A DNA stretch of 64,000 nucleotides from an uncultured Gemmatimonadaceae bacterium (GTDB lineage: Bacteria; Gemmatimonadota; Gemmatimonadetes; Gemmatimonadales; Gemmatimonadaceae). The first letter of the stretch is position 1; every line of letters starts with the position of its first letter. Position numbers and translations under genes: made by a program. The notes under the pieces were generated by a model. That model had not been told where the DNA came from. It saw only the letters and a program-made list of their open reading frames with translations, and ran no database searches. Shown here piece by piece: positions 31,980-45,298 of the stretch. Where the stretch lies: the NCBI GenBank assembly GCA_963740355.1, contig CAVUDW010000003.1, positions 864,001-928,000 of the forward strand, written 5' to 3'.

Positions 31980-32216
31980 TCAGTGTTGATGCGTGTCGTT
32001 CTGGTACTTATCGAGATCGGCCTGGCGTGACTCGTACTCGGTCAATTCCTGCTCGACCTCATCCTTTGCCTTGCCATACCGCTTCTGGATCGCACCGATG
32101 AGCTGGTCACGCTTGCCCGCGATGACATCCATGTCGTCGTCGGTCAGCTTGCCCCACTGCTCGCGCAGCTTGCCCTTGGCGTCCTTCCAATTCCCTTCGA
32201 TGGTATCCCAGTTCAA
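31980..32216 (-). CDS. CsbD/YjbJ family stress protein
   Basis: TTG start after [33 protein letters not shown]...[15 protein letters not shown]. Confidence 0.92.
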
Positions 32217-32243
32217 GGAGACTCCTTGCAAGGGGTAAAAATC

Positions 32244-32358
32244 AAAAAAGCGCGACAGAGCACCCCAGCACGGGGACTCGATCACGCCTTCGACTGACTG
32301 GGCCTCAGCCCGATCCGTCAAGGATCCCTGAACGATCTCAGGGTATGTCGTGCAACAG
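32244..32358 (-). ncRNA. Putative structured ncRNA or leader, copy A
   Basis: Hairpin CCCTGA/TCAGGG, CCTTGACGGA, hairpin GGGC/GCCC, GTCAGTCGAAGGC, terminator plus T6. Ends are inferred. Confidence 0.6.
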
Positions 32359-32368
32359 CTTCTATACG

Positions 32369-32384
32369 TGCAAGATGCGTGCTC
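32369..32384 (-). promoter_or_regulatory. Sigma-54-like promoter GAGCACGCATCTTGCA
   Basis: GCAC-N5-TTGCA with correct spacing, but AG replaces GG in the -24 element. Confidence 0.45.
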
Positions 32385-35787: not shown

Positions 35788-36282
35788 CTACGCCACTGCA
35801 TCAGACCACTCGGCAAGAGGAGCGGACGACACTGCGCCGAACTGCAATGCCCGTGACCCGATCCGCGCCAGCGACTCCTCCAGCACATGCACCGATCGCT
35901 CGACATGTGCCTGACGTGCGAAGCGGAGCGCAAAGCTGCACGATCCCATCAGGAACACCTGCGCCTGCTGCAGCACGCGGATGATCTCCTGATCACGCGC
36001 CACCGACGCGGCACGGTCGCGCAAGGCCGTCAGGGACCGGAACAGCGTGCGAGTGAGATCGCCATCGGTCCGATCACGCCGAACGAGCACGTCACCAAGA
36101 ATACCATCCAGGTGCGCCAGATGTTCGGCGATTGCGGCCTCGAACCCAGCCACGATCTCAGCGCGCTGCTTGGACACCAGCAAACTCCGGAACACCGGCA
36201 GCGTCACGAACAGCGAAATGCTGCCATCATGCAGCTCCGCGAGCTCCTCGGCGAACTGCCCATTTACTGTTGCATCAGCCAT
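35788..36282 (-). CDS. Degenerate ferritin-like (DUF892/YciF-like) protein lacking metal ligands
   Basis: GGAG RBS; near-gapless by-eye alignment to the YciF at 39138 (see findings). Confidence 0.65.
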   Translation of the reverse strand: MADATVNGQFAEELAELHDGSISLFVTLPVFRSLLVSKQRAEIVAGFEAAIAEHLAHLDGILGDVLVRRDRTDGDLTRTLFRSLTALRDRAASVARDQEIIRVLQQAQVFLMGSCSFALRFARQAHVERSVHVLEESLARIGSRALQFGAVSSAPLAEWSDAVA

Positions 36283-36683
36283 GGCTGCTCCACGTCGGCC
36301 CAGGCACGCAGAACGCCCTTGGCCGTGAAAATGAAAAGCGCGCGCGACTCCATTGCGATGGAATCGCCCGCGCCTTCAACTGACGAGCCCAAGTCTCGTC
36401 CGCCAAGTGTACCCGCTCAGAATTCTTCCGGCAGGTCAGAAAACAAGTAATAGGGCGCGATTCCGCGGCGCAAGCAGCCAAGTCCTTCCGGACTCGCCTC
36501 TCGCGCCCTGCGCAACAATCCCGGCGAAATATCAGGTCACCGCGTCACCGGCGTCGCCGTCCGCGACTCGGCATCGCGACCGCGGTTCGAGCATGCGTAT
36601 GCCAGCATCGCGACCAGGACCAGGCCAGCCGCAGGGAGCATCATGCGTGTCTTCATGGGAAATCAGCCTCCAGATTCGCGCAC

Positions 36684-36789
36684 AAAAAAGGCGACGACTG
36701 ACCTGACGGTCAGGAATCGCCTCCAACTCGCGGATCGCCTTCTCCGCGCGAAAAGGTCATGCCAACGCCCGCGTGCACCACGCAGACAC
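36684..36789 (-). ncRNA. Putative structured ncRNA, copy B
   Basis: 5' hairpin GTCTGCGTG/CACGCGGGC, CCTTTTCG, hairpin CGCGGA/TCCGCG, AGTTGGAGGC, terminator AGGCGA..CTGACC/GGTCAG..TCGCCT plus T-run. Confidence 0.6.
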
Positions 36790-36799
36790 ATCAGGATTT

Positions 36800-36815
36800 T
36801 GCATCAACCATGCCA
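36800..36815 (-). promoter_or_regulatory. Putative sigma-54 promoter TGGCATGGTTGATGCA
   Basis: Exact GG-N10-GC; the predicted +1 (~36789) coincides with the start of the 5' hairpin of copy B. Confidence 0.65.
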
Positions 36816-38783: not shown

Positions 38784-38799
38784 TGGCGCAGTATTTGCA
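38784..38799 (+). promoter_or_regulatory. Putative sigma-54 promoter TGGCGCAGTATTTGCA
   Basis: Near-consensus TGGCAC-N5-TTGCA with exact spacing. Confidence 0.7.
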
Positions 38800-38809
38800 C
38801 TCTCCTCGA

Positions 38810-38995
38810 TACCAACAGTGACAGACACGACGCCGACCTGATATACCGCGCGTCGTTGAAACACGAGACCGAAGCAGGTCTCACCATTGACGACAGATCC
38901 GGTTCCGCCGCGTCTGTTTCCTTGTCGCTCGAGTCGAAGGCTCGAGAGATGAAGGCGCGAACGGTGCCCCGGTGCCGACTCGCGCCTTCTTGTTT
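38810..38995 (+). ncRNA. Putative structured ncRNA or leader, copy C
   Basis: Several 5' hairpins, CCTTGTCG (38920-38927), hairpin CTCGAG/CTCGAG, AGATGAAGGC, terminator GAAGGCGCGA/TCGCGCCTTC plus TTGTTT. Confidence 0.55.
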
Positions 38996-39137
38996 CCGGG
39001 CATCGAGCCCGGCAATTCGGACGCGGATGCACATGGTATCCCGTCCGTACACCACGCACCTCGTCGGTACCTCGGTACGCGACGCGATGCGCAGAGTCTG
39101 CGCCTGCGAAGGCGGCGCAGCATGGAGGATCGACACG

Positions 39138-39710
39138 ATGGCGCTCGCAACGATGCACGACCTGATGATTGCTGAATTGAAGGATCTCTACAGCGCCGAA
39201 ACGCAGTTGGTGAAGGCGCTGCCGAAGATGGCCAAGGGCGCCAACACGCCCAGCCTCCGCAAGGCCTTCGAGGATCATCTCGAGCAAACGCAGCAGCACG
39301 TGGCACGACTCGACGAAATCTTCGGCATTCTCGGCTCCAGCCCGCGTGGAACCAAGTGCAAGGGCATGGAGGGGTTGCTCGAGGAAGGCAGCGAGATGCT
39401 CGAGGAAGAGGGCGACGACACGGTGCGTGATGCCGGGATCATCGCAGCCGCACAACGCGTCGAGCACTACGAGATCGCGGCCTACGGGAGCACCCTCGCC
39501 TTCGCGACTCTGATGGGCCATTCCGAAATCGCCGAACTGCTCGAGCAGACGCTCGAGGAGGAGAAGGCGGCCGATGTACTCCTCAGCTCGATCGCCGAGG
39601 AGGAGGTGAACATCGCCGCACCTGGCATGGAGGCCGTCGATGATGACGCCGACGTTGACGAGTCTGACGTGAAGACGAAGGCTCGCGCGACGACGCGCAA
39701 GACGCGCTGA
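39138..39710 (+). CDS. yciF: Ferritin-like DUF892 stress protein
   Basis: GGAGG RBS; ELKDLYSAETQLVKALPKM, HLEQT, AAQRVEHYEIAAYG, TLEEEK. Confidence 0.9.
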   Translation: MALATMHDLMIAELKDLYSAETQLVKALPKMAKGANTPSLRKAFEDHLEQTQQHVARLDEIFGILGSSPRGTKCKGMEGLLEEGSEMLEEEGDDTVRDAGIIAAAQRVEHYEIAAYGSTLAFATLMGHSEIAELLEQTLEEEKAADVLLSSIAEEEVNIAAPGMEAVDDDADVDESDVKTKARATTRKTR

Positions 39711-39764: not shown

Positions 39765-40029
39765 GATGCGCCCGCGCGCCGTCGCGACACTCACATCGCA
39801 GCTGACAGGTTGCCGCTGACGTCGATTCCGCAATCGCTGAGGCGGAAACGCTACGTGGGGCAGTACCGGGTAATCCCGATGCTGCCCCACCATTGCGTGT
39901 CCGCGCAAGGATATATGAACATCAGCTTTCACGAGGAACTCGTTCGCTCCCCGGAGCGCGCCGGCGCTGCCACCTCGACATCACGTGCTACGACATTTCG
40001 TCAGGGCTCGGATTTCCGGACCCAAAACG

Positions 40030-40130
40030 AAAAAAGACATGAACCGTGGCCAGGAGCCGTGGTTCATGCCTTCGACTGACGAGGTCTGATCCTCGTCCGA
40101 CAAGGCGCCTCATACAGCGAGGCACATGTC
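40030..40130 (-). ncRNA. Putative structured ncRNA, copy D
   Basis: Hairpin GCCTC/GAGGC, CCTTGTCGGA, hairpin CGAGG/CCTCG, GTCAGTCGAAGGC, terminator GGCATGAACC/GGTTCATGTC plus T6CGT4. Confidence 0.6.
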
Positions 40131-41070: not shown

Positions 41071-43008
41071 ATGCTCACCCAACCGCCCTCGGGCCACCAA
41101 CGTGATCACGGAACGCGAGACGCATCCACCGAGCGGGATGTTCCGCGAGCGCGTGCACTGGCATTGAAGTACGGCTGGAATGCGATGGCGTATCAGGTCG
41201 TGAACGACGGCATGCAACACTGGTTTGCAGCCGACGGCGACGCGGTCATCGGCTACGTGCGCACACACGGCGTCTGCCTCGTGGCCGGCGCACCGATCTG
41301 CGATGCTGAGCGCCTGGCCGATGTTCTGGATGAATGGGAGCGATTTCTTTCCAGCATCGGCTGCAAGGCCTGCTACTTCGGCGCGGCGGGCCGCGTCTTC
41401 GATGCCCTGCACGATCGCGAGGGTTACTCGACCGTCGTGCTTGGCGCGCAGCCGGTCTGGCACCCCGCACGGTGGCCGCAGATTCTCGAGCGCAGCGCGT
41501 CCCTGCGCGGCCAGACACACCGTGCGCGCAACAAGGGAGTGACGGTCAGCGAATGGACACCCGAGCGTGCCTCGGCCGACGACCGCCTGCGTCTCTGCCT
41601 CGACCAGTGGCTCAGATCCCGCGGACTGCCCACACTCCATTTCCTCGTCGAACCGCACACGCTGCACGATCTCACCGGGCGACGGATCTTCGTCGCCGAG
41701 CGTGGGCGCGACGTCGTTGGATTCATCAACGCGTCACCCGTGCCCGCACGGCGTGGCTGGCTCGTGGAACAGTTCGTCCGCAGTGCGCGTGCACCCAACG
41801 GCACCATCGAGGCGCTGCTGGACACCATGATGCGCGCGGTGGCGGCTGATGGCGCCGAGTATGTGACGATGGGGCTCGTGCCGCTCCGGGAAGGCGGTGC
41901 CACGCCAATCAATGTGAATCCCGCCTGGCTGGTCGCGGTGCTCAAGCTCGTTCGCGTCCATGGACGCCGCTTCTACAACTTCGGAGGCCTTGAACGATTC
42001 AAGACAAAATTCCAGCCGGATGCATGGGAACCGATCTACGCCATCAGCGCTGAACCGGCATTTTCGATCCGGACGCTGTACGCGATAGCCGCCGCGTTCA
42101 CCGTGCAATCGCCACTGCTCGCAGCGGGTGGTGGCCTCGTTCGCGCCGTCGCCGTCGAGCTCGACCGACTACAACGCTCTCTCGGTCTCAAGCGCCGCAG
42201 AGCCTGCAGCGACGCGCCCATCGCGGCGTGGTCGTGTCCGGCCGATCAGCAGTTCCGTCAGCAATGCATCGACATCCAGCTGCGTGGGGATGTGGTGGGT
42301 TGCGGCAGATTCCTTCCATCGACCGACGCGCACACCAAGGCTGGCGCTGCCGTCGAGTACTCGAAACGCCGCTTCATCCGTGAGCTCGTCGCCGACGAAG
42401 AGCGCCCCGGGCAACTGGTGCTGCTCGATCAGGTGCTTGAGCGCATCACCTTTGTCAGGCGCACCCGATGGAATCAGGTTCACGAGCCCGATGCCTTGTA
42501 CCAGCGTCACCTTGTGTGGCAGCGTGGGCGCCAGCACTTCCATCGCAGCAATGGCCACGCCGGGGTCGGGAGCGTGCCAGTAGTGCACCGACACCGACTG
42601 CACCTTGTTCTCGATTTCGACACCATCGAGGCCGGCGACGACTTCCGTCAGGCGCGGCATCCAAGCCGCCACTTCACGCGCGGCACGCTTGGCGAATGGC
42701 GAAGGCTCGGCGCCGTGGTTGCCGATGACGGCCAGCAGGGGAATGCCCTCGAGCCGCGGCGAGACATCGTGCACCGAGCGACCGGTGATCACCGCCACCG
42801 GCGCCGCGTGCGCAAGGCTCCGCAAGAGCTCTGCGGTTTCGACGCGCATCCGGGTCGCCGCCGGATCGGTTCCCATCGGCGCCAGGGTGCCGTCGAAATC
42901 GAACCCCAGCAATGCACCGCTGGCGCCGAGGGCGCGAAGTCGTTCGATGTTGCGAGCAGCGAGAATGTTTCGGCTTGGCACTCAGGAGTGATTGCAGGAT
43001 TGATCTGA
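41071..43008 (+). CDS. DUF2156 / MprF-type aminoacyl-phosphatidylglycerol synthase domain protein; the ORF continues antisense through otsB
   Basis: VAGAPIC, RARNKGV, APNGTIE, TMGLVPL, FYNFGGLERFKTKFQPDAWEPIY. The domain ends around 42180. Confidence 0.75.
   Translation: MLTQPPSGHQRDHGTRDASTERDVPRARALALKYGWNAMAYQVVNDGMQHWFAADGDAVIGYVRTHGVCLVAGAPICDAERLADVLDEWERFLSSIGCKACYFGAAGRVFDALHDREGYSTVVLGAQPVWHPARWPQILERSASLRGQTHRARNKGVTVSEWTPERASADDRLRLCLDQWLRSRGLPTLHFLVEPHTLHDLTGRRIFVAERGRDVVGFINASPVPARRGWLVEQFVRSARAPNGTIEALLDTMMRAVAADGAEYVTMGLVPLREGGATPINVNPAWLVAVLKLVRVHGRRFYNFGGLERFKTKFQPDAWEPIYAISAEPAFSIRTLYAIAAAFTVQSPLLAAGGGLVRAVAVELDRLQRSLGLKRRRACSDAPIAAWSCPADQQFRQQCIDIQLRGDVVGCGRFLPSTDAHTKAGAAVEYSKRRFIRELVADEERPGQLVLLDQVLERITFVRRTRWNQVHEPDALYQRHLVWQRGRQHFHRSNGHAGVGSVPVVHRHRLHLVLDFDTIEAGDDFRQARHPSRHFTRGTLGEWRRLGAVVADDGQQGNALEPRRDIVHRATGDHRHRRRVRKAPQELCGFDAHPGRRRIGSHRRQGAVEIEPQQCTAGAEGAKSFDVASSENVSAWHSGVIAGLI
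42169..42981 (-). CDS. otsB: Trehalose-6-phosphate phosphatase
   Basis: HAD motifs FDFDGTLAP, ITGRS, GNHGAE, DKG, FVGDELTDE. Confidence 0.9.
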   Translation of the reverse strand: MPSRNILAARNIERLRALGASGALLGFDFDGTLAPMGTDPAATRMRVETAELLRSLAHAAPVAVITGRSVHDVSPRLEGIPLLAVIGNHGAEPSPFAKRAAREVAAWMPRLTEVVAGLDGVEIENKVQSVSVHYWHAPDPGVAIAAMEVLAPTLPHKVTLVQGIGLVNLIPSGAPDKGDALKHLIEQHQLPGALFVGDELTDEAAFRVLDGSASLGVRVGRWKESAATHHIPTQLDVDALLTELLIGRTRPRRDGRVAAGSAALETERAL

Positions 43009-43009
43009 C

Positions 43010-45298
43010 TCAGGCGCCAGTACTGACCGGCAGCGCAAGTCCGGAAAGATTCAGCGTTCGACGAGCGCGAACCCGCAACTGTGCAGCATCGAGCAACATG
43101 CGCCCCGCCCATCGGTACACGTTGTGCTCGGCCACCACCGCCCGCATCGCCCGCATGCGTTCCGCCTGCTCCGCCGGCGGCATCAGTGCAGCGCGTTCCA
43201 TCGCGCAGCTCGCCTCTTCTACATCGTACGGATTCACGATCAGGGCATCCGCCAACTCGTTCGCGGCGCCGGCAAACTTGCTCAGGACCAATACCCCGCG
43301 TTCGTCGTCACGGGCCGCCACGAATTCCTTTGCCACCAGGTTCATGCCATCGTGCAGGCTACTGACATAACACATATCGGCAGCACGGTAGAATCGGAAG
43401 ACGCGCTCCGGCTCGTGATGGGCTCGCAGGAAGACCACCGGCTTGTACGTCGCCGTCCCGAAGCGGGCATTGATTCGTTCCACGCTCGATTCCACCGCGA
43501 AGCGCAGCTGCTGGTACTGCGGAATCTCCGAACGGCTCGGCGCGGCCAACTGCGCGAACACGAATCGCCCCACCAGCGATGGGCGACGTTCCAGCAGGCG
43601 CTCCACCGCGTCGATCCGCTCCTCGATGCCCTTGGTGTAGTCGAGCCGATCGACACCGACCGCCAGTACGGTGTCCTCAGGCAGCCCAAGCTCCTCGAAC
43701 ACCAAACGGCGGCACTCGACCGCATCGGGAATCGATTCCGTCCAGCGCACCGGCCACTCCACGGAGATGGGATATGGGCGCACCAGTGTGCGAGCGCCCT
43801 GTCGAATGACGGCATTGTCGGCACGATCGATCCGCGCCTCGAGCGAGGTGTCGACCGTCTCGAGGAAATGGTTGCAGTGCGATTGGGTGTGAAAGCCCAC
43901 GATGCTCGACCCTAGCAGCCCGTCAACCAGCTCTTCCCGCCAGGGACAGATGCTGAATCGCTCCGCGTTGGGCCACGGGATGTGCCAGAAGGTGATGATC
44001 GTGGCGCGCGGCAGTCGCTCACGAATCATCCGTGGCGCGAGGGCGAAGTGATAGTCCTGCACCAGCACGATCGGATCGTCTTCGGTCGTCTCCTGAACGA
44101 CGGCATCCGCAAACCGTGAGTTGATGGTCTTGTAGTGCTCCCAGTCGCCGCTGCGGAAGATGGGACGCGCATACGTCTGGTGACAGACCGGCCAGAGCCC
44201 TTCGTTGGCGAAGCCGTAGTAGTAGCCCTGTTCTTCCTGCTCCGACATCCAGACGCGGCGCAGGCGGTACGACTCTTCACCAGGCGGCACCATCAAGCGC
44301 CCCTTCGCGTCCGCAGAGGCGCGGTCGGCCGATCCGCTGCCGTGCGCGATCCAGACACCCGAACAGGCACGCATCACCGGCTCCAGCGCGGTTACCAGAC
44401 CGGACGCGGGGTGCCGAACGACCACACCATCCGGTGTGCTGTCGTGAATGTAGGGTTCGCGATTGGCGACGATCACGAGGCTTTCCTCACGCACGTGCTC
44501 CTGCAACACCTTGCGCAACCGCGCCCGCGTCCAGCGACCGTCGCGGTCTTCCTCGACGGCGGCAGCGGCACGCCGCTGCGCCATCGCGCGGATATCGTCC
44601 AGCACCGGCGATTCACCGTCTCGCCACCACTGCCCCTCGCCCCGCAATGCACCCGTCAGGCGTCGCATCAGGCCGCCCCGAGTGAGGCGCGATGAGAGCA
44701 AGGTCAGGAGTGACGACGCGACCGCCAGCATGCCAAAGACCAGCATCGCCCAGCGCTGTACCAGCGTCTCGCGCGCCAGCGCCGGCTCCAGCGTCTGCAA
44801 CAGGACCAGGCGCACCGGGAGCGTCAGGCCCGAGGCGAACGTCGTGATGCTCACGTGCGACGGTGCCGCCTCGGCCGCAGACTTCACGACACCGCTCAGC
44901 GTCCCGGTCTTCTCGCCGCGCCACTTCACCACCTGCACACGTGCGCGATCACACCACTCACCATCGACGGGAAAGGTCGGCGTGCGGGTGATGATCACGC
45001 CATCGGTTCGGCAGAGCGCCGCCGACATCACCTCATCGTTATGGACGATGTCACCGAGCAGCATCGTCAGCCGGCGCTCATCGCCAGCCGCGTAGGCGGA
45101 GAGCACACCTTGCCGCACACTACTCGCGGCCAGTACCGCACGAGAGTGCAGTTCAGATTCGAACCAGGCACGCGTGGTGCGTGTCGTGACCACGCCCACC
45201 GCAACGACCACCAACGCGATCGCCGCCAGCAACGGCAACAACAGTCGCAATGACTCGCGAAATGGGCCGTGCGTCGTTCGTCGATCAGGAACTGGCAT
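43010..45298 (-). CDS. otsA: Trehalose-6-phosphate synthase (GT20) with an N-terminal TM-extracytoplasmic-TM extension
   Basis: VANREP, SGLVTAL, YYYGFANEGLWP, QDYH, FWHIPWP, GVDRLDYTKGI, DGMNLVAKEF. Confidence 0.9.
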   Translation of the reverse strand: MPVPDRRTTHGPFRESLRLLLPLLAAIALVVVAVGVVTTRTTRAWFESELHSRAVLAASSVRQGVLSAYAAGDERRLTMLLGDIVHNDEVMSAALCRTDGVIITRTPTFPVDGEWCDRARVQVVKWRGEKTGTLSGVVKSAAEAAPSHVSITTFASGLTLPVRLVLLQTLEPALARETLVQRWAMLVFGMLAVASSLLTLLSSRLTRGGLMRRLTGALRGEGQWWRDGESPVLDDIRAMAQRRAAAAVEEDRDGRWTRARLRKVLQEHVREESLVIVANREPYIHDSTPDGVVVRHPASGLVTALEPVMRACSGVWIAHGSGSADRASADAKGRLMVPPGEESYRLRRVWMSEQEEQGYYYGFANEGLWPVCHQTYARPIFRSGDWEHYKTINSRFADAVVQETTEDDPIVLVQDYHFALAPRMIRERLPRATIITFWHIPWPNAERFSICPWREELVDGLLGSSIVGFHTQSHCNHFLETVDTSLEARIDRADNAVIRQGARTLVRPYPISVEWPVRWTESIPDAVECRRLVFEELGLPEDTVLAVGVDRLDYTKGIEERIDAVERLLERRPSLVGRFVFAQLAAPSRSEIPQYQQLRFAVESSVERINARFGTATYKPVVFLRAHHEPERVFRFYRAADMCYVSSLHDGMNLVAKEFVAARDDERGVLVLSKFAGAANELADALIVNPYDVEEASCAMERAALMPPAEQAERMRAMRAVVAEHNVYRWAGRMLLDAAQLRVRARRTLNLSGLALPVSTGA

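Follow-up and report, generated by a model that had tools for sequence, protein, structure and literature searches.

An RNA element with two mutually exclusive helices, before stress genes and beside a two-component system in Gemmatimonadales, as a candidate factor-dependent attenuator

The window analysed here, a stretch of 64,000 nt from the genome of an uncultured soil and sediment bacterium of the Gemmatimonadaceae, carries five copies of a short structured RNA element within 7.9 kb, and by our covariance model R1 the 5.45-Mb genome as a whole carries nine. A sensor kinase and a response regulator are encoded between copies B and A, and several of the copies stand before small genes on the same strand. 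The features of the locus, with the boxes and strands of each copy, are as follows.

31980..32216, minus strand: csbD, with a TTG start at 32216 (PF05532, E 7.5e-21)
32237..32333, minus strand: copy A (R1 70.3 bits), with CCTTGAC at 32323-32317, GTCGAAGG at 32294-32287 and a T-run at 32249-32244
32369..32384, minus strand: sigma-54-type motif GAGCACGCATCTTGCA of copy A, 35 nt after the response-regulator stop codon
32421..33140, minus strand: response regulator of 239 aa, a receiver followed by a C-terminal domain of about 120 aa
33137..35713, minus strand: sensor histidine kinase with PAS, HisKA and HATPase domains
35788..36282, minus strand: 164-aa ORF, called a pseudo-ferritin in the preliminary description, heading the kinase/regulator operon
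36325..36418, minus strand: fifth copy, B-type (R1 55.9 bits), with ACTTGGC at 36408-36402 and GTTGAAGG at 36380-36373
36447..36474, minus strand: sigma-70-like promoter CTTGCG-N16-TATTAC of the fifth copy, assigned by eye without statistics
36537..36656, minus strand: 39-codon ORF with a signal-peptide-like start, 21 nt after copy B
36678..36766, minus strand: copy B, the weakest copy (R1 30.4 bits), with CCTTTTC at 36756-36750, GTTGGAGG at 36727-36720 and GCCTTTTTTG at 36692-36683
36800..36815, minus strand: sigma-54-type motif TGGCATGGTTGATGCA of copy B (motif match)
38784..38799, plus strand: sigma-54-type motif TGGCGCAGTATTTGCA of copy C (motif match)
38910..38998, plus strand: copy C (R1 64.2 bits)
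38920-38926, plus strand: 5' box CCTTGTC of copy C, followed by G 38927
38928-38946, plus strand: hairpin P1 of copy C, 6 bp, followed by A 38947
38948-38955, plus strand: 3' box GATGAAGG of copy C, with the bulged G at 38951
38951-38960, plus strand: 5' strand GAAGGCGCGA of the G+C-rich terminator hairpin of copy C
38980-38989, plus strand: 3' strand TCGCGCCTTC of the same terminator, with a T-rich tail to 38995
39138..39710, plus strand: DUF892 (YciF/YciE family) gene (PF05974, E 1.1e-57)
40023..40115, minus strand: copy D (R1 66.8 bits), with CCTTGTC at 40105-40099, GTCGAAGG at 40076-40069 and a T-run at 40035-40030
40157-40141, minus strand: motif AAGCAC-N6-TTGCA upstream of copy D, an imperfect sigma-54 match

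A preliminary description, made from the letters of the window, had listed copies A to D, read their boxes and bulges, and placed them relative to csbD, yciF and the 164-aa ORF. On re-reading of the letters and coordinates all of these statements stand, and what it lacked is the fifth copy at 36325-36418, together with the promoters and the linked response regulator. The terminator base of copy C (GAAGGCGCGA/TCGCGCCTTC) reuses the AAGG of the 3' box. The middle pair of the box helix is A-U in copy A and U-A in copy C, one bulged G being needed in both; the boxes of copy D pair with one U/U mismatch, and those of copy B (CCTTTTC and GTTGGAGG) pair only partly. A search for AGTCGAAGGC with up to one mismatch gave 17 matches compared with 4.9 expected, and a terminator scan flags copies A and C. 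About 10 nt separate the T-run of copy A from the Shine-Dalgarno sequence of csbD (AAGGAG, 32227-32222), copy C ends 139 nt before the ATG of DUF892/yciF at 39138, the fifth copy lies 42 nt before the 164-aa ORF and copy B ends 396 nt before it, while copy D is convergent to yciF and is without a credible downstream gene. As a separate observation on the surroundings, otsB-like and otsA-like genes, read from their translations, flank the island at 42169-45298 on the minus strand, which fits an osmotic or desiccation theme.

The family was delimited with R1, which was built from 33 copies and whose E-values are rough, and with two alignments, A4 with 75 distinct copies and A7 with 90 distinct copies among 93 matches in the collected loci. 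These 90 copies belong to two families of the Gemmatimonadales. By the covariance model the RNA occurs in 12 of 151 genomes and 8 of 77 genera of a family sample, and in 18 of 151 genomes of an order sample, namely the source genome with 7 of 62 further genomes of family f1, 10 of 61 of f2 and none of 27 of f3. A simple pattern matched all 19 sampled genomes of the source genus, some of the listed matches being due to chance; the first simple pattern was too narrow for the sister family, where the covariance model recovered copies. Copy number reaches 11-12 per genome, and in one genome (G075) 7 of 11 copies lie inside 13.3 kb. Relatives of the neighbouring DUF892 protein carry the name of Gemmatimonadaceae MAGs. 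Rfam gave no match in the whole window at the gathering score and only chance-level matches around copy C at E up to 10, and our literature searches found no regulatory RNA or small RNA of Gemmatimonadota. The RNA motif and the regulator domain described below are new, well-delimited families, even if the idea of a switch should fail. There is also a divergent subfamily with AUGG for AAGG (G000:C3:1220524-1220611, C3:363182-363274, loci L130 and L139), which precedes different genes, coding for proteins of 112-119 aa without a family, and which is also found in genome G005, where the regulator C-terminal domain is not.

RNAalifold folds the aligned copies into one long hairpin consisting of CCUUGNC, a G, the variable hairpin P1, an A, GNC, a bulged G and AAGG. 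The two boxes do pair, as had been proposed from the window: the helix they form (CCUUGNC with GNC-G-AAGG, here P0) extends P1 and is 94.7% paired over the 90 distinct copies, a count that, like the one for the terminator below, comes from alignments fitted to the P0/P1 structure of the model and from genomes that are related and not independent. Slid controls are at most 57% paired, and the covariation score of P0 is 0.214 compared with 0.108 in shuffles, a value reached by none of 500 shuffles. Its inner pairs vary on both sides (pair 19-49 is GU in 43 copies, UA in 19, AU in 6, CG in 4, GC in 2 and other in 16). The outer pairs CCUU/AAGG hardly vary; A4 has three cells there in which both sides differ, and compensation is seen as CCUC/GAGG in locus L137 and at the A-U of CCAG/AUGG in L139. 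P1 covaries freely (pair 25-41 is CG in 20 and UA in 9, another pair AU in 14 and GC in 11), and its loops vary from 3 to 9 nt.

The second helix is the base of a G+C-rich stem-loop followed by UUUU, as in an intrinsic terminator, with U-tracts that are short and often interrupted. This base (AAGGCGYG with CRCGCCUU) is 96.1% paired over the 90 copies, with 18 cells changed on both sides and compensation as AUGG/CCAU in L130 and L122 and as CAGG/CCUG in L171. The preliminary description also had the 3' box shared with the terminator, and this holds across the family: the same AAGG serves either CCUU/AAGG in P0 or AAGG/CCUU in the terminator, all four pairs being possible with either CCUU partner in 73 of the 90 copies. 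None of the AUGG copies (four in A7, five in A4) is compensated in both helices. With two helices competing for common nucleotides, and a terminator as one of the two, the element has the arrangement of an attenuator. That the boxes barely vary while P1 covaries freely would be explained by the pairing of AAGG with two partners. In one subgroup (loci L026, L033, L034 and L036) the hairpin 5' of the element itself reads GCCUUC...GAAGGC, giving three GCCUU-like and two GAAGGC boxes in one RNA, a sign, perhaps, that the hairpin was duplicated or that still other pairings are possible.

Outside the helices a G.A mismatch and the bulged G are nearly invariant (G21 in 90 of 90 copies, A47 in 88 and G51 in 89). 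These nucleotides bear on the suggestion that the element is riboswitch-like, or more generally a direct physical sensor, with a small molecule, an ion, ionic strength or temperature stabilising P0 and no protein involved. The layout would suit an ON-switch, the 3' strand of the conserved stem being common to the terminator and the whole standing before functionally related genes which suggest osmotic or desiccation stress; the sections of a report that describe the YjbJ motif likewise place a motif with a terminator before CsbD-family genes in Streptococcus (PMC11109978). Yet very few nucleotides are conserved outside the helices, the stem and loop of P1 vary freely, and the search of Rfam showed no described class, so that a metabolite-binding form of the suggestion finds only the one mismatch and the one bulge where a ligand pocket would be expected. 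A self-sufficient sensor also needs no near-perfect co-occurrence with one family of regulators, which is documented below, and we consider such a sensor quite improbable.

The balance between the two helices was estimated with ViennaRNA in 74 copies, a further one being omitted because of a gap; in each, the four outer pairs of P0 and the pairs of the terminator base were imposed in turn. In 68 of the 74 the terminator form comes out ahead, by a median of 4.0 kcal/mol if the U-tract is left out and 6.5 kcal/mol if it is included. The six exceptions, which are rows with the terminator 3' strand shifted in the alignment and have an unconstrained minimum far below both forced states, are due to column-based constraints. 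Minimum-energy folds of four window copies contain the full terminator in all cases, and only four nucleotides are common to P0 and the terminator. The competition between antiterminator and terminator that had been proposed for copies A and C is thus borne out as far as the conservation of both helices goes; left unaided, the terminator form would win by these energies, and antitermination would therefore need a stabilising factor. In these models P0 alone would not block termination, and it could do so if some factor added a few kcal/mol. CsrA was considered as such a factor; it is present in the genome, but the boxes are without the GGA that forms its recognition core.

Upstream of the element the promoters are of more than one type; all promoter calls are motif matches. 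Of 75 copies, 26 have a sigma-54 -24/-12 motif (TGGCAC-N5-TTGC) that scores at least 12 of 14 and stands 40-70 nt ahead of the 5' box; that score is reached on the opposite strand in 1 of 75 copies and at random places in 24 of 1500, so that part of the family carries the promoter expected of a sigma-54-dependent small RNA. The motif of copy C (TGGCGCAGTATTTGCA) is 120 nt before its 5' box, compared with 43-68 nt in most relatives. The sigma-70-like pattern of the fifth copy recurs, as CTTGCG(C)-N16-17-TAnnnT and again by eye without statistics, before B-type copies and before copies in other genera. rpoN is present in the genome together with ten strong sigma-54 activator genes, none of which is inside the window, and an upstream activator site for sigma-54 could not be resolved since the upstream DNA is coding. 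The interval from promoter to 5' box is taken up by a short stretch with ACAU and by a variable hairpin. That one and the same RNA follows promoters of different types points to control at the RNA level. We also note a motif, (A)CGACAU(A), 2-4 nt before the 5' hairpin in most copies (for example window 32340-32335, L164 and L162), which is kept in both families, whether the promoter is of the sigma-54 or the sigma-70-like type.

In A4, at least 34 of the 75 distinct copies have a recognisable small stress gene downstream in the same orientation, at a distance of 13-140 nt. The genes that recur downstream, with their distances from the copy, are these.

CsbD: 8 copies, seven at 13-27 nt and one at 84 nt
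DUF892/YciF: 8 copies, 100-140 nt
protein of 164-169 aa without a family: 7 copies, about 42 nt (one at 89 nt)
DUF1328: 3 copies, 44-116 nt
lipoprotein-like protein of 161-163 aa: 3 copies, 17-25 nt
basic protein of 49 aa: 2 copies, 22-24 nt
protein of 63 aa: 2 copies, 24 nt
AHSA1: 1 copy, 26 nt

The same set recurs in the sister family. With CsbD, YciF/DUF892 and DUF1328, and with trehalose genes nearby, the gene theme of the RNA family is clear, and the set suggests osmotic or desiccation stress. The 164-aa ORF of the window has no family in Pfam or NCBIfam; among the 75 distinct copies, 7 are B-type copies with this ORF behind them, and within the genus it always stands between a B-type copy and the kinase. 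One relative has a 256-aa DUF4397 protein after a copy related to B. That stress genes follow on the sense strand had been noted for the window, and judged from geometry many are so near that their expression would be by read-through, the seven CsbD genes at 13-27 nt apparently leaving no room for another promoter and the 164-aa ORF, at about 42 nt, pointing the same way by its position. Before yciF no conserved promoter was seen in the spacer of 100-140 nt, which is unconserved except for a hairpin just before the Shine-Dalgarno sequence. This hairpin, GCGYUCC...GGAACGC directly before the yciF Shine-Dalgarno sequence (ACCAUGGAGG), is found at 39085-39137 on the plus strand of the window and in L026, L033, L034 and L035. 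Sequestration of the Shine-Dalgarno sequence by the 5' box was considered and set aside, since by eye CCUU is not complementary to the GGAG of the downstream genes.

About 12 of the 75 copies have no downstream ORF by simple criteria, three of these loci being cut short. The preliminary description had itself cautioned that copy D has no clear downstream gene, and the caution holds: D-type copies occupy a fixed position convergent to yciF across the genus, with canonical boxes and with sigma-54 motifs of their own. Gene-less copies that keep canonical boxes, several with strong sigma-54 motifs, fit a released RNA with a function of its own and speak against an attenuator, as does the fact that sigma-54 promoters already give tight transcriptional control. 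On such an account the element would be a small-RNA gene, or the source of a leader-derived small RNA, with a leaky terminator; the short RNA would act in trans or bind a protein, the downstream genes would receive constitutive read-through, the 5' CCUU would be a conserved seed or contact whose overlap with the terminator is incidental, and the regulator would control promoters or be itself a target. This agrees with the energies and the full terminators reported above, with a 5' CCUU that is unpaired in the favoured fold, with boxes whose conservation is the same whether or not a gene follows the copy, with U-tracts whose shortness and interruptions would make terminators leaky, and with the existence of multi-copy sigma-54-dependent small RNAs such as Qrr. 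It agrees less well with the fusion of most copies to a gene start and the recurring set of stress genes. P0 is paired and changes on both sides, which is needless for a free seed; the free CCUU is very short as a seed and the hairpin loop is not conserved, and the genome, at 94.5% completeness, yielded no Hfq (PF17209). On balance a trans-acting or protein-binding RNA strikes us as rather unlikely, though it is a serious competitor of the attenuator.

The attenuator calls for a factor, and the two-component system of the locus offers a candidate. The C-terminal domain of the 239-aa regulator has no family in Pfam or NCBIfam, its profile gives only chance matches to PDB sequences (E at least 0.4), domain and profile searches detected no known DNA-binding domain in the regulator, and a search of a protein atlas gave no usable match. 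It has 420 homologues in a large protein collection, and among the 120 listed there is receiver annotation at most, so we regard it as a well-delimited new domain family of Gemmatimonadota. Its invariant motifs are H-x-C-Q-x2-N-C-P-R-G and F-K-S-K (C-x4-C, Arg, Lys). An AlphaFold2 model from 50 sequences is good for the receiver and gives a helical C-terminal domain at pLDDT 40-69; with this low-confidence C-terminal model, Foldseek against the PDB returns mostly receiver domains, EutV appearing at rank 24 only via the receiver and the long helix.

The RNA and this domain co-occur almost perfectly. When the genome samples screened with the RNA model were also screened with the domain profile (A6), the domain was found in 10 of the 151 genomes of the family sample, all 10 of them among the 12 RNA-positive ones. 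The two others are G005 and G093. In the loci of G005 four copies were seen, and AUGG replaces AAGG in three of them; G093 has a completeness of 87% and a single weak match, at a contig end. In the order sample both were found in 17 of 151 genomes, the RNA alone in one (G270), the regulator alone in one (G236, with a weak and partial match) and neither in 132; such counts overstate independence owing to shared ancestry, but they span two families as well as presence and absence within one genus (g60), where 7 of 12 genomes have both and 5 neither. In 10 of 10 genomes the regulator gene is followed on its own strand by a copy, 85-281 nt beyond its 3' end, and tblastn finds the regulator just upstream of a copy in the source genus and six other genera. 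Among 16 further loci from a phylum-wide sample, mostly from the family outside the training set of the model, a strong copy follows right after the regulator in 13 (E 2.2e-12 or better), and one of the remaining three carries a divergent look-alike copy. The regulator's own operon is headed by a copy in the source genus, and in G075 and G134 a copy lies about 300 nt before a kinase homologue. Regulator-positive genomes also have dispersed copies, 4 of 9 in the source genome and 10-12 on several contigs in G204, G249 and G258. Against the regulator as the factor, co-occurrence and adjacency would also be expected from promoter control or from an island inherited as a block, and G005 and G270 have copies with no regulator match.

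The adjacency could in principle be explained at the level of DNA as well, if the imperfect inverted repeat CCTTGNC...GNCGAAGG past the transcription start were an operator bound by a dimer of the regulator. The boxes do form an inverted repeat in the DNA, the regulator is adjacent and co-occurring, and its homologues are named OmpR-family DNA-binding regulators by JGI, although these names are automatic. But the repeat pairs only with a bulge, the spacing of the boxes varies with the length of P1, the pairing of P1 is kept by two-sided changes (as at pair 25-41) that an operator does not need, and, as stated, the regulator has no recognisable DNA-binding domain. We hold such an operator to be very improbable.

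Our preferred reading, which we hold tentatively and with slightly less than even confidence, is that the element is a factor-dependent attenuator and that the 239-aa response regulator is the leading candidate for the factor. Each element would be the leader of a transcription unit, with its own promoter, a short 5' hairpin, the P0 and P1 hairpin, the terminator and usually a small stress gene. AAGG would pair either with the 5' CCUU, closing the bottom of P0, or with the 3' CCUU by the U-tract, adding the last four pairs to the terminator. Unaided, the terminator would form and a short RNA of roughly 120-190 nt would be released. If termination is regulated, as we infer, P0 would be the part that is stabilised: with a factor holding it closed, the terminator would lose the two G-C pairs that adjoin the U-tract, and polymerase would then read into csbD, yciF and other genes. 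G-C pairs in that position are held to be critical for intrinsic termination. The most likely factor would be the phosphorylated form of the regulator encoded beside the RNA, which would then have to bind RNA; that it binds P0 itself we think doubtful. A bolder and equally doubtful version would make the C-terminal domain a new RNA-binding antiterminator output unrelated to ANTAR, which on phosphorylation clamps P0 at its CCUU/AAGG end throughout a dispersed stress regulon, in each leader and in that of its own operon as well, the gene-less copies serving as decoys that buffer the response. A single co-inherited unit of two-component system and RNA offers a route to how a general stress or desiccation regulon is wired in Gemmatimonadota.

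Several known systems invite comparison. Qrr1-5 and GlmY/GlmZ are sigma-54-dependent multi-copy small RNAs, and like them the present element consists of paralogous short RNAs with -24/-12 promoters, conserved blocks and intrinsic terminators. Unlike them, most copies here are fused to a downstream gene, about a third have a sigma-54 motif, no sigma-54 activator gene is nearby, and the search for Hfq in the 94.5% complete genome argues against an Hfq-dependent small RNA. The YjbJ motif, described by the Breaker laboratory in 2024 as a structured RNA with a terminator hairpin before a CsbD-family gene and as a weak riboswitch candidate, is set apart by its description, which in the relevant sections of the report places it only in Streptococcus (PMC11109978).

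The closest likeness is to protein-driven antitermination. In the BglG/SacY systems, according to the part of the source that treats them, the RAT is an imperfect hairpin just 5' of an intrinsic terminator with which it has few nucleotides in common, and it is held closed by the protein (PMC3369931). The present element resembles it as an imperfect hairpin with a conserved stem and bulges that shares nucleotides with the 5' strand of the terminator; it differs in that the candidate factor is a response regulator and not a PTS-controlled protein, the motif is unrelated, and CAT_RBD (PF03123) was not found in the genome, at 94.5% completeness. With the ANTAR regulators EutV, AmiR and NasR, as the same part of that source presents them, it shares a two-component system in the same locus as several leader motifs overlapping terminators (PMC3369931). 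The order of parts in the regulator, a receiver, then a long helix and a helical output, would also be alike if the low-confidence model is right, although the output domains are unrelated. ANTAR targets are dual hairpins with hexaloops having A at position 1 and G at position 4, whereas only 12 of the 90 P1 loops here are hexaloops, and none has both A1 and G4. The linked regulator has no match to the ANTAR domain (PF03861) at E up to 10, and the one ANTAR protein of the genome lies on another contig (G000:C2:409414). With no CAT_RBD, no ANTAR domain in the regulator and no dual A1/G4 hexaloops, the element is a member of neither class, while by analogy it would work like the RAT/BglG or ANTAR systems. 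If this is true, it may represent a third kind of antitermination driven by a response regulator or other protein, beside ANTAR and BglG.
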